Below, piece after piece: positions 1-48,049 of a DNA stretch of 48,049 nt. Position 1 is the first letter of the stretch. Each line of letters starts with the position of its first letter. Location of the stretch: positions 1 to 48,049 of IMG/VR virus record IMGVR_UViG_3300037484_000103; one strand, written 5' to 3'. The notes under the pieces were generated by a model. The model saw nothing but the letters and a program-made list of their open reading frames with translations, had not been told where the DNA came from and did no database searches. The position numbers were made by a program, and so were the translations under genes. Origin of the DNA: a virus. Its lineage: Duplodnaviria; Caudoviricetes.

Positions 1-228
1 ATTGTTCTGTCAGATAGCGCCGGGTTACGCTTCCGATTGATTTCAGGATAGACGATTCATCAAGTACCACGGCTCCGAATTGTGAGAAGTCAAGGGCCTC
101 TATCATTTCGTAATTGCACGTATAGATTTGGCAATCCTCTTTTATTTCAGACATGCTCCGAATGTAGCGGATTTCAATTCCTATTTTCTTACCTTCTCTA
201 ATTGTTTGCCGAGTAACAGATAGCGGGG
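1..228. repeat. Terminal direct repeat / circular overlap (copy 1)
   Basis: Matches 47822..48049 with 6 mismatches (positions 11, 26, 65, 68, 97, 101); 102..228 (127 bp) is identical. Confidence 0.95.
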
Positions 229-550
229 CTATTACAATGGCTCGCTCTTCAAGAAGTCGAGCCCATTCCAACTGAATAAATGTTTTCCCTAGGCCGGTAT
301 CCAGGAATATGGCGGCCCGTCCCTTGTGACAAGCCCATTTAACAATATCTCGCTGAAATGGATATAGCTTAGGGTTGATTGCGAAATCAGTAATCTCAAT
401 CCCGGTAAAATCCTGCCGAATCTTTTTAGAGGAAAGGAATTGCTGATAGTCTATTAAAGACTCGGGCCGAGTCCCGTGCCCCGGCGAAGGGGATGTGCCA
501 GCGTAGGCGCACACGGAATCTCGGCCCGAATCATCTACGCTGTTTTTCAA
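1..550 (-). CDS. N-terminal part of SF2/SNF2-like helicase-DNA methyltransferase fusion (continues across the circular junction to 46008)
   Basis: GGAGGT RBS then TTG at 550; reads MKNSVDD...LYPFQRDIV...IFLDTGLGKT (Q motif, Walker A) and joins in frame with MSEIKEDC of ORF 46008..47975. Confidence 0.85.
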   Translation of the reverse strand, partial: MKNSVDDSGRDSVCAYAGTSPSPGHGTRPESLIDYQQFLSSKKIRQDFTGIEITDFAINPKLYPFQRDIVKWACHKGRAAIFLDTGLGKTFIQLEWARLLEERAIVIAPLSVTRQTIREGKKIGIEIRYIRSMSEIKEDCQIYTCNYEMIEALDFSQFGAVVLDESSILKSIGSVTRRYLTEQ

Positions 551-573
551 TCCTACCTCCTCGGGGTTCGCCG
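459..573 (-). ncRNA. C4/CI-like antisense RNA element B with its upstream targets
   Basis: 13-bp basal stem (459..471 / 520..532) and two hairpin loops, CTACGCTG (499..506) and TTCGCCG (482..488), which are exact complements of upstream CAGCGTAG (535..542) and CGGCGAA (567..573). Confidence 0.65.
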
Positions 574-587
574 CACCCGACCCCTGT

Positions 588-616
588 ACATTACTACGGA
601 AGCCGGTTCGTGTCAA
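588..616 (-). promoter_or_regulatory. Sigma70-type promoter for the helicase/replication operon
   Basis: TTGACA (616..611) - 17 nt - TAATGT (593..588). Confidence 0.75.
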
Positions 617-834
617 CCCCATATCCTCACCCCTGCATCCTCCAGCAGCTCCCGCAGTTTGTCCCGTGCTTCCTGGAGCGCCGCCGCCCTGGCCTCCGGT
701 GGGTCGGCGTACTTCAGCTCGCAACGTAGCCAGGTGTCCAGCTCCGAGAGGACCCCCCGCACGGCCTGCGCCTGGAGGGCGGCGGTCAGCTCCTCCTGCT
801 CCTCGGGGAGCGTGAAGCGTAGGGTGGCGGTCAC
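613..834 (-). CDS. Conserved hypothetical phage protein
   Basis: GTG start overlapping the upstream stop; MTATLRFTLPEEQEE...LRCELKY pattern common in phage early genes. Confidence 0.65.
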   Translation of the reverse strand: MTATLRFTLPEEQEELTAALQAQAVRGVLSELDTWLRCELKYADPPEARAAALQEARDKLRELLEDAGVRIWG

Positions 835-4785: not shown

Positions 4786-4952
4786 GTGAGTGCCGGGGCA
4801 GACCACCCGCCCCGGCGATTGTGGAATAGCTGTGGACTTCTCGACCCCGTCCTTGATGGCGGCGCCGTTTCCGTGTATTGAAGCTTCTGTCGGACCTCCC
4901 CTATAACAGCCCGCCCGCGGCCCTGCCAACGGCCGTACCCGCAGGTCGGTAC

Positions 4953-5024
4953 AGGCGGCGGCCGGCATCGAACCAGCGTCCCCGGTGTACAAAACCGGTA
5001 TGCTGCCCACTACACCACACCGCC
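4953..5024 (-). tRNA. tRNA-Thr(UGU), no encoded CCA
   Basis: Acceptor GGCGGTG/CGCCGCC; anticodon arm CCGGT-TTTGTAC-ACCGG; T arm GCTGG-TTCGATG-CCGGC. Confidence 0.75.
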
Positions 5025-5033
5025 TGAAATTCT

Positions 5034-8023: not shown

Positions 8024-8703
8024 GAGCGAAAGGCCACCGTGCCCGCGTCGAACACGCGCACCCCAGGAATCCGCGTTTCGGCCTTCATCGCCTTGACCAG
8101 CCGTCCGATCTTCACCAGGTCTGGGGTCATGTACTCCCGGGGGACAGCGGCCTCGTCGCTGATCTCGAATTGCCAGTTGGCCCGGGTGCTGGCCCCCTGG
8201 ACCGCCACCTTCGGGGCCGGGGCTTCCACCTTCGCCACTTCTACAACTACCGGGGCCGCCAGCACTTCCTCGGCCTGTTCGGCCATGCCTTCCTTCTCCA
8301 GCCGTTCGGCCAGGGCGAGGCGGTTCTCCTCCTCGATCTTCCGCTTCTCGGCGGCCTCCGCTTCGGCCTTCCTGCGGGCTTCCTCGGCCTCCTTGCGCTT
8401 GCGGGCTTCCTCGATCTGCTGCCAAGAGTAGGCCCGAGAGGATAGGGTTTTCTTGGCCGTTTCCAGGGGGTCGATGAAACTCTTCATCAGCTTCATGACC
8501 TCCTGATATGCTTCGTAAGTTTTCCGTTTGGAGGGGCCAAGACGTTCCTCCACCAGCTTGATCCGAGCCGAGCAGGACTTCCCGAGCTCCATCGCCTGCT
8601 CGAAGGTCACGGCGTCAATCACCTGTAGGGCATTCGCTGCCGCCACCACCGGATGGATCTCGGCGGATAGTTCAGTCCTCTCCGCTACCATGACATCGCC
8701 CAT
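8020..8703 (-). CDS. Coiled-coil recombination-region protein (Gp157-like C-terminus)
   Basis: Long coiled coil; W.FEI.D...VPREY..PD..KI...IPGV. Confidence 0.65.
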   Translation of the reverse strand: MGDVMVAERTELSAEIHPVVAAANALQVIDAVTFEQAMELGKSCSARIKLVEERLGPSKRKTYEAYQEVMKLMKSFIDPLETAKKTLSSRAYSWQQIEEARKRKEAEEARRKAEAEAAEKRKIEEENRLALAERLEKEGMAEQAEEVLAAPVVVEVAKVEAPAPKVAVQGASTRANWQFEISDEAAVPREYMTPDLVKIGRLVKAMKAETRIPGVRVFDAGTVAFRS

Positions 8704-10624: not shown

Positions 10625-11156
<532 letters not shown>

Positions 11157-11309: not shown

Positions 11310-11328
11310 GATGCCCTCCTGAAACACA

Positions 11329-11440
11329 AGGGGCGAGTCACCTGCTGTAGAAGTGGGACTCCACCGCCGAAGTAACGGTGTGCCCAGCAACAGATTGACT
11401 CGCCCCTGGCGTCTACTTCGTTTGTCATAGCAGCTTCTAC
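11329..11440 (-). ncRNA. C4/CI-like antisense RNA element A with its upstream targets
   Basis: 12-bp basal stem (11329..11340 / 11396..11407); apical loop TACTTCG (11368..11374) complements CGAAGTA (11414..11420); bulge CTTCTAC (11347..11353) complements GTAGAAG (11434..11440). Confidence 0.7.
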
Positions 11441-11455
11441 CCTGCTCATGCTCTA

Positions 11456-11484
11456 ACTATAGACCCCCCGCGTGGAAAACGCAA
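11456..11484 (-). promoter_or_regulatory. Sigma70-type early promoter
   Basis: TTGCGT (11484..11479) - 17 nt - TATAGT (11461..11456). Confidence 0.7.
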
Positions 11485-11492
11485 GGATTATC

Positions 11493-11750
11493 TTAGGTAT
11501 TCTCGTCTCTTTTTTTGGTAAGTTTCCTGTACCACGATATGGCGGTATTTTTCGTCACGCCCAAAGCCTCGCACAAGTCCCCGTGGTTCGTCTTCGGCCA
11601 AAACTCCACCAACGCCGCCTGCTGTTCCAGCGTCAACGGGCAGGGCCGCTGATACCGGCCCGCAGGCCGGCAGGATTCCAACCTTGCCAGTAAGTCGGCA
11701 GAGTACTTGATACTCACCGCGGCGGGGGCTTTCAATTCGCGGCGAGGCAT
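11493..11750 (-). CDS. Small HTH-like protein
   Basis: DLCEALGVTKNTAISWY helix-turn-helix-like segment; AGGAG RBS. Confidence 0.55.
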   Translation of the reverse strand: MPRRELKAPAAVSIKYSADLLARLESCRPAGRYQRPCPLTLEQQAALVEFWPKTNHGDLCEALGVTKNTAISWYRKLTKKRDENT

Positions 11751-12523
11751 ACATACTCCTTCGGCACAACATACTTCAACGGCATGAGCCTGGGCCGGAT
11801 GTATACCTCCCCGGAGTTGTCGATTTCCACGTAGATGAATCCAAAGTCATAGTACAGGCCGCGCAGTTTGCGGGCGTAGATGGATCGCCCCCGTTCGGGG
11901 TCAGGCAGGAACAGGCAAGGAATCGACACCCCGCGCCGGCCAGCCAGTCGGAGCTCAAAGAAGTAGTGGGTATGCGCTCTCGCCAAAACATCCGCAGGCT
12001 TGAAATCTTCAAGAAGCGATTGGAGCATTTCCCGGATAATCTCTTTCCCGAGTTGCGCCCCCTGGCCGGTGGGAACATCGGAGCGCCCCTGGACATGGCG
12101 AATGTTGAAGCGGACTTCCCATTTCGGTCCTTGCACCTTCAACCGCAGGGTATCACGGATTTCCGCATCCAGCCGGCGGGCTACCAGATTTTCGATGCTC
12201 AAAGAGGAAACGGTGTGAAGCGGCGTACCATAGCAAACGTATTTTTCTTTCGCCCGCACGATGCTCAGTGCTTGCGCGGCGGCCTCAGCCTGCTCTTCTA
12301 CATCTGTCGTCCAGAGGCCGAGCGTTTCTTTCGTTCCCGGGCCGTCTATCAAATCTCCGTCAAATACGGCAAAGTCTACAGGGCCGATAGTCTTTATCTC
12401 TGCGGCCCACCAATCCCACGCCTGCCTCTGGATTCCCTTGCAGCGCCCTTGCCAAAACTCCGGGGGCGTCAATCCCAAAACGTGCCCGGTATGTGGATCG
12501 GCAGCAAGAATGCCTTTTGTCAA
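11732..12523 (-). CDS. Calcineurin-like metallophosphoesterase
   Basis: ADPHTG, GDLID, GT..H, RH and AHTH motifs; GGAGG RBS and TTG. Confidence 0.8.
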   Translation of the reverse strand: MTKGILAADPHTGHVLGLTPPEFWQGRCKGIQRQAWDWWAAEIKTIGPVDFAVFDGDLIDGPGTKETLGLWTTDVEEQAEAAAQALSIVRAKEKYVCYGTPLHTVSSLSIENLVARRLDAEIRDTLRLKVQGPKWEVRFNIRHVQGRSDVPTGQGAQLGKEIIREMLQSLLEDFKPADVLARAHTHYFFELRLAGRRGVSIPCLFLPDPERGRSIYARKLRGLYYDFGFIYVEIDNSGEVYIRPRLMPLKYVVPKEYVCLAAN

Positions 12524-38286: not shown

Positions 38287-38357
38287 GGCCGCTCCAGGGA
38301 TTCGAACCCCGATGAACCGGGTACAAGCCGGCTATGCTGCCATTACATCAGGGCGGC
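38287..38357 (-). tRNA. tRNA-Thr(UGU), one acceptor mismatch, no CCA
   Basis: GCCGCCC/GAGCGGC; GCCGG-CTTGTAC-CCGGT; CGGGG-TTCGAAT-CCCTG. Confidence 0.7.
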
Positions 38358-38442
38358 AAAAAGGACAAGAGGGCTAACCATGGGGATTTGGCCTTCATCC
38401 CCACCTGGGCATATAGTGGCCGGACGAGCCCCTAAGTCCCCG

Positions 38443-38515
38443 CTGTGTGGGCTGGATTCGAACCAGCGCGCTTCGGCTTAACAGGCCGCTGCTCTACCCG
38501 CTGAGCTACCGCACA
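38443..38515 (-). tRNA. tRNA-Asn(GUU), one acceptor mismatch, no CCA
   Basis: TGTGCGG/CCACACA-G; D arm GCTC/GAGC; CGGC-CTGTTAA-GCCG; GCTGG-TTCGAAT-CCAGC. Confidence 0.75.
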
Positions 38516-46007: not shown

Positions 46008-48049
46008 CTAATCAAACAGTCTCAGTTCCCTGAAATGTGTCTCCGCATATTGGCAATTCTCTACGGCAATTCGGAAATAAGATTCCTTCAACTCGATACC
46101 AATTCCTTTCCTGCCGAACCGGATTGACTGATAGACTTCAGAACCTATTCCCATGAATGGCGTGAGAATCGTCTCCCCGGGATTGCTATACAATTTTATG
46201 CATCGCTCAATCGTCCCGAGTTGTAGCGGGCAGATATGCTTTTCGTCGTCTTTGTCTCTGGCTGATGAATAGCGGAGCACATCGGATTCACTGATTCCGA
46301 ACCAGATACCATGCGCCCAGGCGATCCATGTTTCGTTATCCATTTCCTTGTTTTTCACCGGCTCAATCGGTACTTGATTTTCCCCCGCTTTCTGGAATAT
46401 CAAAACCTGATCTACGATTGCCGGGCGAATATCGGCCGCATCCCTTCGGAGTTGGGCAAACAACAGCCCCTTACTATGCGTCCGGATCGCCTGCGCCTGC
46501 GGATTCTTCTGTACAAACGCACGCCCGCAGAATGTCCAGCCCTCGGACATGTGCGCCCGGATAACTTCTCCCGGGAAATCCTTCATCCCGATATATCCAT
46601 CCTTGACAGCCAGGGCGGGAATATCGCTTGTATGAACGCAAGACAGCCTTCCCGGTTTCGTGACCCGCAGCACTTCCCGAATAATGAACCCGTAATGAAT
46701 AAAAAACTCTCCCCAACCCTTGCTGTTTCCTAAATCATTCTCGCTATTAGTGTAGGTATACAGATCGGCGAACGGTGGGGAGTATACTGATAGGTCAATC
46801 GAATCGTTTTCTATCTTGGAAAGTTCTCGGCATGAATCCCCGTGTATTGCCGTGAAGTTATTTCCTTCTGCGGGTTCGAGATATGTCTCTTCTTTCGCCT
46901 TCCCGTTTCCGTTCAAGTGCAACTCCTTGCGCTCATAAATAGAAATATTGCGTAACAGCTCGGATACCATTAGCTTTGCTACTCGTTCTTTTCGCATGAC
47001 ATTCTGATAGATTTCCTGCTCGGCTTCGGATATGACTATGTAGATGTTCACGGGATGCTTTTGGCCGTAGCGCCACTGGCGGCGGATGCACTGATAATAG
47101 GCTTCCCATGAATCCGATAGTCCAAAGAAAATCGCATTATGGGAGTTCTGGAAGTTCATTCCATGGCCGCAGATTTTCGGCTTACTGACCAAGATTCTGT
47201 ATTTCCTGTCCTGAAAATCCTCGAGGTCTTTTATCTTCTGTTCCTGCGGATCATCTCCCTTTACTTCCCTCGAATCTTTTGCTTCGGCTGACAGGGCCGT
47301 GGTCTCTGATTGCAGTCCGCCCCATAGAATCCACTGGCCCGGGTCTTTCGATAGCAATTCCGATACGATAGACAGCCGACCCCGGATGGTGGCCCTGCGT
47401 ACTTTAGTCCTGTCCTGTATGCCTTTCAGTTTGGAATGGAATAATTCTCCAGAGGGAATATAGTCAGACTTCACGATCATCGGAATAATGTTTAACGGGG
47501 GAAGGATGTACCCCTCGTCACTATAGCCAAGTTCCGAAGGCCGGGTCATGGCAATCGCCCAGGATGCCATCCATTCGTAGAACGGTCCCCGGGCGTGATT
47601 TTTCAATCTCCATTCCTGGCCCTCTTTATTCCCGTGCTTCTTTCGGATAATTGTCCCGTCCTCATATTCATGCTCATCCTGCTTGTTTGCATGAATGAAA
47701 AACATGGCCAGCATTTCAACGGACTTACAAACCCCTAAAAACTCCGCATGGTTTCCTATTTCGCTTTGATCGTTCGGCGCAGGCGTAGCGGTGCAACATA
47801 GGCGATATTTCGTGTTCGCGCATTGTTCTGTGAGATAGCGCCGGGTCACGCTTCCGATTGATTTCAGGATAGACGATTCATCAAGCACTACGGCTCCGAA
47901 TTGTGAGAAGTCAAGGGTCTCGATCATTTCGTAATTGCACGTATAGATTTGGCAATCCTCTTTTATTTCAGACATGCTCCGAATGTAGCGGATTTCAATT
48001 CCTATTTTCTTACCTTCTCTAATTGTTTGCCGAGTAACAGATAGCGGGG
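46008..48049 (-). CDS. SF2 helicase - N4/N6 DNA methyltransferase fusion (C-terminal part; full gene about 787 aa from TTG 550)
   Basis: LDESS, TATP, G.N.Q and R.WRYGQ helicase motifs; then SPPF and PFMGIGS (beta-class MTase). Confidence 0.9.
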   Translation of the reverse strand, partial: PLSVTRQTIREGKKIGIEIRYIRSMSEIKEDCQIYTCNYEMIETLDFSQFGAVVLDESSILKSIGSVTRRYLTEQCANTKYRLCCTATPAPNDQSEIGNHAEFLGVCKSVEMLAMFFIHANKQDEHEYEDGTIIRKKHGNKEGQEWRLKNHARGPFYEWMASWAIAMTRPSELGYSDEGYILPPLNIIPMIVKSDYIPSGELFHSKLKGIQDRTKVRRATIRGRLSIVSELLSKDPGQWILWGGLQSETTALSAEAKDSREVKGDDPQEQKIKDLEDFQDRKYRILVSKPKICGHGMNFQNSHNAIFFGLSDSWEAYYQCIRRQWRYGQKHPVNIYIVISEAEQEIYQNVMRKERVAKLMVSELLRNISIYERKELHLNGNGKAKEETYLEPAEGNNFTAIHGDSCRELSKIENDSIDLSVYSPPFADLYTYTNSENDLGNSKGWGEFFIHYGFIIREVLRVTKPGRLSCVHTSDIPALAVKDGYIGMKDFPGEVIRAHMSEGWTFCGRAFVQKNPQAQAIRTHSKGLLFAQLRRDAADIRPAIVDQVLIFQKAGENQVPIEPVKNKEMDNETWIAWAHGIWFGISESDVLRYSSARDKDDEKHICPLQLGTIERCIKLYSNPGETILTPFMGIGSEVYQSIRFGRKGIGIELKESYFRIAVENCQYAETHFRELRLFD
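47822..48049. repeat. Terminal direct repeat / circular overlap (copy 2)
   Basis: See 1..228. Confidence 0.95.

Follow-up and report, generated by a model that had tools for sequence, protein, structure and literature searches.

The window, a stretch of 48,049 nucleotides, is the whole genome of a circularly permuted tailed phage. Its ends overlap by 228 nt (1-228 / 47822-48049) with 6 mismatches, indicating that the two ends derive from slightly different variants; the overlap falls inside a helicase gene. All called genes lie on the minus strand. Comparison of 77 ORFs with PHROGs identified terminase, portal, capsid, tail, RecT-like, exonuclease and HNH genes and returned no integrase or repressor family. 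Summed across the circular junction, the helicase gene encodes a fused helicase-DNA methyltransferase of ~787 aa, and downstream of it lie a winged-helix gene, an HNH nuclease and then a weakly supported replisome organizer. The start of this gene carries a compact element, here called switch B, which has the following parts and neighbors:

613..832, minus strand: upstream 73-aa ORF, whose TGA stop (615-613) lies inside the -35 hexamer of switch B
588..616, minus strand: promoter-like site, -35 TTGACA (616-611), 17-nt spacer, -10 TAATGT (593-588)
563..584, minus strand: small hairpin bearing target a, CGGCGAA (573-567), fold -10.7 kcal/mol
556..562, minus strand: Shine-Dalgarno GAGGAGG, 5 nt before the TTG
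548..550, minus strand: TTG, likely helicase-methyltransferase start codon, with the Shine-Dalgarno upstream
535..542, minus strand: target b, CAGCGTAG, codons 3-6
459..532, minus strand: three-way-junction RNA, 74 nt, with loops b' and a'
452..458, minus strand: short T-rich tail, including the ATA codon 454-452
2..550, minus strand: N-terminal portion of the helicase-methyltransferase, starting with the 32 extra residues that the RNA element encodes
46008..48047, minus strand: remainder of the helicase-methyltransferase, across the circular junction

The promoter, the two targets and the two-loop three-way RNA of the original prediction were all found on the minus strand where they had been placed. 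The closing stem of the RNA has 20 bp, including 2 G-U pairs. Loop b', CTACGCTG (506-499), is the exact complement of target b, and loop a', TTCGCCG (488-482), is the exact complement of target a. The promoter hexamers exist as described; the -10 hexamer, however, agrees with the consensus at 3/6 positions, and the site is absent from the promoter-scan list. A transcript start is predicted near 581, and the promoter, a predicted site, is the weak part of the evidence for switch B. TTG 550 is the sole in-frame ATG, GTG or TTG with a Shine-Dalgarno ahead of the conserved domain, other candidates being GTG 514 (within the stem) and ATA 454, and TTG is frequent among the starts of this genome (10 of the 47 that are linked to a Shine-Dalgarno). 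Only three T's are present in the tail. The G+C content is 65% in the leader versus 43% in the gene, with a sharp step at the junction. Family and homolog searches with the upstream 73-aa ORF gave no match.

Folding predictions show that the 74-nt core of switch B is unusually stable, at -47.5 kcal/mol versus -28.5 +/- 3.2 for 1000 dinucleotide shuffles (z -5.9), none of which was as stable. In a genome-wide, GC-adjusted scan of 100-nt windows, switch B ranked second and a second element, switch A, ranked fourth. We described the layout by a descriptor that requires two loops within a long stem, each complementary to a 7-nt site further upstream, with thresholds chosen after switch B had been seen; its matches in the window are exactly switches A and B. 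Block-shuffled genomes reached the grade of switch B (20 or more stem pairs with no more than 3 unpaired bases) in 0 of 341 cases, and a looser grade gave a match in 1 of 274. A contig of run X1, which may be the source sample, is identical to the window over 265-576; as it shows no differences, an assembly error is unlikely for the ATA codon and the stem. Together the tests of structure and chance show that switch B is a real structured element. A tRNA or tmRNA remnant was considered as its identity and rejected, as none was detected.

The TTG frame runs through the RNA into the helicase-methyltransferase, giving an extension of 32 codons. We compared 119 homologs, of which 6 are truncated ahead of a conserved Tyr; the remaining 113 include one misaligned fragment. 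At most four residues precede this Tyr in 87 of the 113 and exactly two in 48, versus 34 in the window protein, and the only 2 with at least 31 have sequences unlike that of switch B. Moreover, the ATA at 454, in the T-rich tail directly behind the stem, aligns with the start Met of the homologs. Since the homologs start 32 codons later, the first 32 residues do not belong to the enzyme family. The suggestion that homologs might lack the N-terminal ~30 aa thus held, and a peptide conserved at the protein level was not seen among the 113. This pattern fits a history in which the helicase gene came to sit behind an RNA module and now would start at the module's TTG.

The in-frame extension stays open in 43% of shuffles, times one frame in three, so that an open extension alone is weak evidence. 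TTG 550 is supported by its perfect Shine-Dalgarno and by switch A, in which the start codon has the same +9 offset from site b. It had been claimed that the RNA is translated as the first ~30 codons of the enzyme; the open frame is there, at 32 codons, and we infer translation from that frame.

No switch-like element was found ahead of any helicase homolog locus screened by the layout descriptor, a screen that included wider flanks and 19 genome loci and in which several loci hold little upstream DNA. Inspection by eye of the upstream DNA, at 43 of the 53 viral helicase loci and 20 of the 75 from metagenomes, likewise revealed no such element. That the element is missing before every homolog examined and occurs in one genome only, together with the sharp G+C step, might point to an inserted palindrome or a dead switch copy lying in frame with a newly acquired helicase. 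We consider such a decayed or accidental element very improbable: the 7+8 complementarity is perfect and the 20-bp stem nearly so, the promoter and Shine-Dalgarno are intact, shuffled genomes did not reach its grade, and the stem ends show no target-site duplication.

The second match of the descriptor in the window lies among other genes:

11322..11449, minus strand: switch A, layout as in switch B, with a = GTAGAAG and b = CGAAGTAG

As had been proposed, the start contexts of the two switches are parallel; the layout is common as well, and the b site starts at +9 of the start codon in both. Loop a' of switch A is single-stranded in a 3' bulge, as in the C4 RNA of phage P1, whereas that of switch B has its own hairpin. 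A leader ORF of 40-47 codons runs through the RNA of switch A, and its stop overlaps the start of the next gene. A second in-frame ATG lies at the predicted transcript start of switch A (11449-11306, minus strand); read from there, the ORF would have 47 codons, might be leaderless and would end in a stop that overlaps the TTG of the following gene. In a related phage (run X1 record 4; window 11322-11765) switch A is unchanged and 473 different bases follow its T tail, indicating that the module was reused before another gene. The second gene behind switch A is Imm5-like and holds an Ala-rich low-complexity repeat at 10700-10850 (minus strand).

The two switches had also been described as non-cross-reacting, which the predicted pairing supports in one direction only. 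The loops of switch B pair over at most 4 nt with the leader of switch A versus 7-8 with their own sites. The loops of switch A, in contrast, fit the ribosome-binding region of switch B over 7 and 6 nt, G-U pairs included, but these two matches overlap and so cannot form together. Pairing energies are -7.3 and -8.0 kcal/mol for the cognate loops and -5.4 and -6.1 kcal/mol for the non-cognate ones. By these calculations separate control by A and B is plausible, and cross-talk from A to B is possible.

Descriptor scans of fetched loci (1.11, 1.59, 0.32 and 0.29 Mb, partly overlapping) gave high-grade matches in two further phage records, two in G006 and one in G049:

L386:12344-12453, plus strand: G1, record G006, non-coding, precedes a primase-like gene
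L386:13484-13591, plus strand: G2, record G006, non-coding, precedes an O-like initiator gene
L457:8212 (region 8165-8370), plus strand: G049 element, AT-rich, precedes an operon with DnaB

Like the window genome, the G006 phage has two copies whose b loops differ. G1 and G2 can be aligned (p 0.0005); site a is identical, b differs at 3 of 7 positions, and the changes in b' match. Four double changes were counted among 21 stem pairs, a comparison of two sequences only, in which 33 of 500 shuffles scored as high. Each of the two follows a TATAAT and ends in a T tail, with the replication gene next. The a hairpin of G2 agrees with the Rfam c4-a1b1 consensus at 14 of 14 positions (E 4.5). An extra perfect a word lies 47 nt downstream of G2, within the initiator gene. 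The G049 element has a promoter-like site upstream and a single-stranded a'. As shuffles reach its descriptor grade once per 1.7 Mb, its membership rests on the promoter-like site and the DnaB operon context, and it probably shares the compact layout. The likely Shine-Dalgarno of the next gene in G049 sits in the 3' strand of the long stem.

In all five elements (A, B, G1, G2 and G049) the sense strand folds better, G-U pairs are present, a small hairpin presents site a, and the complementarity of a and a' is perfect. The layout stands mostly before replication genes. Sequence similarity of switch B to A, G1, G2 and P1 is not significant (p 0.08-0.88), and its kinship therefore rests on layout. 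A covariance model built from G1 and G2 only placed switch B top in the window, on the right strand, at E 0.02; an ordinary terminator scored E 0.044 and switch A E 2.5, and switch B was lost under default filters. Scanning 1.5 Mb of loci and 151 genomes of G052's phylum with the same model gave no new element, and the G006-type pattern gave 1 chance-like match in 401 genomes of that phylum, which was chosen as a guess. Descriptor matches at L211, L245 and L444, plus eight and three others, were of chance grade and were dropped, and L439 was set aside as a member because a cis hairpin is its stable fold.

In G1, G2 and the G049 element no coding leader crosses the RNA, the T tails are strong, and the next start lies immediately behind. 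These features would suit control at a terminator, or at a start, behind the stem; switch B would then leave the helicase to begin at ATA 454, a codon that serves as a start in rare cases and lies exactly at the Met position of the homologs, and the TTG extension would be incidental. We hold this to be decidedly unlikely for switch B. ATA 454 has no Shine-Dalgarno outside the stem whereas a perfect one stands 5 nt ahead of TTG 550, the start codon of switch A sits at the same offset from b, and the tail of switch B is weak.

The original prediction had missed the likeness to the C4/CI antisense clan, and with it the Gifsy-1 precedent for an in-frame RNA. According to PMC5320573, C4 loops block a ribosome-binding site in trans, and the specificities of the P1 and P7 C4 RNAs differ by 4-nt changes. 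In P1 C4, measured on the P1 record, a has 7 nt and b 8 nt, likewise in switch B; the distance from a to b is 29 nt (a2-b2) in P1 and 31 nt in switch B, the RNAs are 77 and 74 nt long, and b' precedes a' in both. The C4 family (RF01695) has a long closing stem of ~20 bp leading into a three-way junction within 75-90 nt, compared with 20 bp and 74 nt here. Furthermore, as in P1/P7 C4, targets and RNA lie on one transcript and a few loop letters would give specificity. The order of a b' in a hairpin loop and then a 7-nt a' agrees as well, though a' of switch B lies in a second hairpin.

The differences are equally clear. The first arm of C4, a hairpin capped by a UUCG/GNRA tetraloop, takes no part in antisense pairing, whereas that of switch B carries b'. 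RNase P-type ends (5' GGW, 3' CCACC), seen in P1 as GGTGGG...GCCACC, are replaced by GATTCG...CGAGTC. C4 has a second target set, a2/b2, which covers the ribosome-binding site of the gene downstream; for switch B, a search of 300 nt with 1 mismatch allowed gave neither a b2 nor a paired a2. Only 2 nt separate b from the RNA, compared with ~65 nt in P1 C4. Unlike in P1 C4, the start codon lies between a and b and the RNA is inside the reading frame, and the gene controlled would be the helicase-methyltransferase rather than icd-ant. The C4 model (RF01695, clan CL00128) gave no match to switch B at the gathering threshold or at E <= 10; in the P1 control C4 scored 68.8 bits and IsrK 35.1 bits, and c4-a1b1 was also found by the same tool. 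For none of the five elements did any Rfam family reach a meaningful score. The c4-a1b1 motif (RF03163) presents site a in a small hairpin soon after the promoter, and so does switch B, whose a hairpin, compared by eye, looks like the second one in the c4-a1b1 alignment, a resemblance not significant against P1; the first 7-bp hairpin of the motif is absent, and the model had no match. Likewise, the IsrK leader (RF01394) has its own terminator hairpin, but switch B has none between b and the core and is not matched by that model. Since the Rfam models had no match and the tetraloop arm, the RNase P ends and a2b2 are missing, we do not file switch B as a C4 member.

Closer parallels to the in-frame RNA come from Gifsy-1. 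According to PMC4825925, the Gifsy-1 reading frame orf45 spans a processed CI-like RNA of roughly 80 nt; its stop overlaps the start of the following gene and so couples the two, and in S. dysenteriae they seem to be fused. The overlapping stop-start of this isrK-orf45(STnc1160)-anrP arrangement resembles switch A and the fusion resembles switch B. A translated, even fused, C4/CI-like RNA is already known from Gifsy-1, and alternative cis folds hide or free the start in Gifsy-1 as in switch B. The Gifsy-1 RNA tested in trans there is, unlike in switch B, the IsrK leader, which activates and whose complementarity covers ~30 nt. In satellite phage P4, the CI RNA is excised from its own leader transcript and base-pairs with a site further upstream, which turns the phage's replication genes off (PMC4825925 and PMC3632133). 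P4 CI RNA, with seqA and seqC, also uses the downstream seqC, whereas switch B has upstream sites only and is itself coding.

We followed the predicted folding of the five elements as equilibrium predictions on growing chains, which carry no kinetics. In all five, pairing of b with b' is predicted once b' is made and is lost when the 3' strand of the long stem appears. This pairing has a probability of 0.8-1.0 in nascent switch B, where the a' arm also pairs with the Shine-Dalgarno region (-19.3 kcal/mol). The Shine-Dalgarno is unpaired at 17% when 112 nt are made, at 69% at 127 nt and at 20% at 152 nt; as 30 more bases hide it again, the state with a freed start is not robust.

These cis folds could be the whole switch. 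The loops would pair with their own leader, hide the start and block the long stem with no RNA acting in trans, and the amount of enzyme would be set by refolding or ribosome loading. The strength of the nascent pairings is consistent with such a kinetic switch; processing signals and a second target set are absent, and there is no convincing trans target elsewhere in the genome. On the other hand, pairing of a with a' in cis is rarely predicted (at most 0.04 in switch B), yet a:a' is perfect in all five elements, and site a is displayed in a hairpin like a kissing partner. The finished fold is more stable than the forced cis form, with a margin of 11 kcal/mol in B and of 15-30 kcal/mol in A, G1 and G2. 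Different loop codes in one genome are also easier to explain with diffusing RNAs. We therefore regard a purely cis-acting switch as possible but rather unlikely.

Trans targets were sought in the window genome, where G-U-tolerant pairs of a and b matches besides switch B itself number four on the minus and two on the plus strand and were taken as chance. Whole-RNA cofolding showed no gain, as the program cannot model kissing loops. In the finished fold, the only perfect and correctly ordered targets of the two loops flank the start of the element's own message.

Release of a C4-like RNA onto new transcripts would, by analogy, be the simplest use of the two loops. We lean towards the reading that switch B is a compact C4/CI-like antisense switch, in which RNA released from its own message would shut the replication operon off. 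While the leader is being synthesized, cis pairing of b with b' is predicted, the Shine-Dalgarno being covered by the a' arm; once the 3' stem strand is made, refolding to the three-way form is predicted to free the start. Early in infection, with no free RNA, ribosomes would load at the TTG and translate through the stem. Since ribosomes would unwind and translate the stem, the enzyme would carry a passenger extension of 32 residues. RNA with the predicted 74-nt three-way fold would then be freed from the helicase-methyltransferase message, by RNase III-type cutting of the stem or by termination at the weak T tail. Freed RNA would bind a and b around the ribosome-binding site and TTG of fresh messages, cover the ribosome footprint and turn the replication operon off. 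Untranslated messages would keep the stem and be cut or terminated there, yielding more inhibitor and locking the OFF state. The outcome would be sequence-specific replication shut-off and immunity to phages sharing the loop code.

The opposite sign is also conceivable. According to PMC4825925, IsrK activates orf45 translation in trans, and a leader or core RNA might similarly open the closed cis fold of switch B, which is predicted to hide the start, and turn translation on. We give this little credence, less than any other reading considered: no terminator hairpin lies between b and the core, the IsrK model has no match, and a core RNA at b would overlap the ribosome footprint.

Shut-off by an antisense RNA also recalls the plasmid attenuators. 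In pT181-type attenuators of plasmid replication the antisense RNA comes from the opposite strand and is fully complementary. In the non-coding G006 and G049 versions binding in trans would block the cis pairing of b with b', so that the stem and T tail would form before the replication gene. This likeness fits G1, G2 and G049 best, but unlike pT181 antisense RNA the switch RNA lies on the same strand and matches in two short loops.

Searches for relatives of switch B covered several collections. Its loop pattern occurred at 18 loci in viral contigs, none with site a or the fold, and a pattern of the a hairpin plus a' at 31 loci, none with the fold. For switch A, 119 of ~550 loci with its pattern were examined and held no relative. 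No relative of switch B was returned by blastn against phages and plasmids, or with RecT used as bait; terminase relatives G001-G005 are fragments in which the region is not covered by DNA similarity. In the literature covered, mostly outside subscription papers, we found no report of the compact upstream-only layout or of two such switches per phage. The c4-2 motif of PMC5737381 (Weinberg 2017) may already cover the compact layout, which may bear on its novelty. What appears to be new is a compact variant of the C4/CI antisense design, whose function we infer by analogy.

More tentatively, and with considerable doubt, we suggest that these elements may form a distinct family of compact self-encoded antisense attenuators in repressor-less environmental phages, with paired two-loop codes, modules swapped in front of new genes and, in switch B, a coding RNA. 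If so, separate gating of replication and of early operons would fall to pairs of attenuators that each have a two-loop code of their own; switch B would have become the coding N-terminus of the enzyme that it controls, with translation of the repressor RNA as the ON signal. To our knowledge, C4/CI-type RNAs have been described almost only in proteobacterial phages, and as immunity switches controlling antirepressor or satellite genes. A stripped-down ~130-nt form outside the Rfam models, present twice per genome and before replication genes, would widen the C4/CI family. In phages that have no recognised repressor, such compact switches would provide a means of controlling replication and of superinfection immunity. 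As specificity would lie in two words of 7-8 nt, the five natural versions make a ready panel of orthogonal RNA regulators to test, and in the translated fused form the coupling of translation, folding and RNA release would be testable on one short construct.

Some further features were observed in the course of the analysis. The leader at L439:415-630 (plus strand, record G028) has a promoter, two alternative long folds and a second hairpin, followed by an HNH nuclease gene; an Rfam search of this leader gave no match. Related contigs (L310, L313, L317, L318, L323, L329 and L337, near 1500) share a GGCGAA hairpin with a strong terminator-like hairpin and a downstream complementary word, in a layout that differs from switch B; Rfam searches of L310 and L317 gave no match. 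The window also carries three tRNA genes on the minus strand (4952-5025, 38287-38357 and 38442-38515), two of which are Thr(TGT), and one tRNA stands isolated among early genes.
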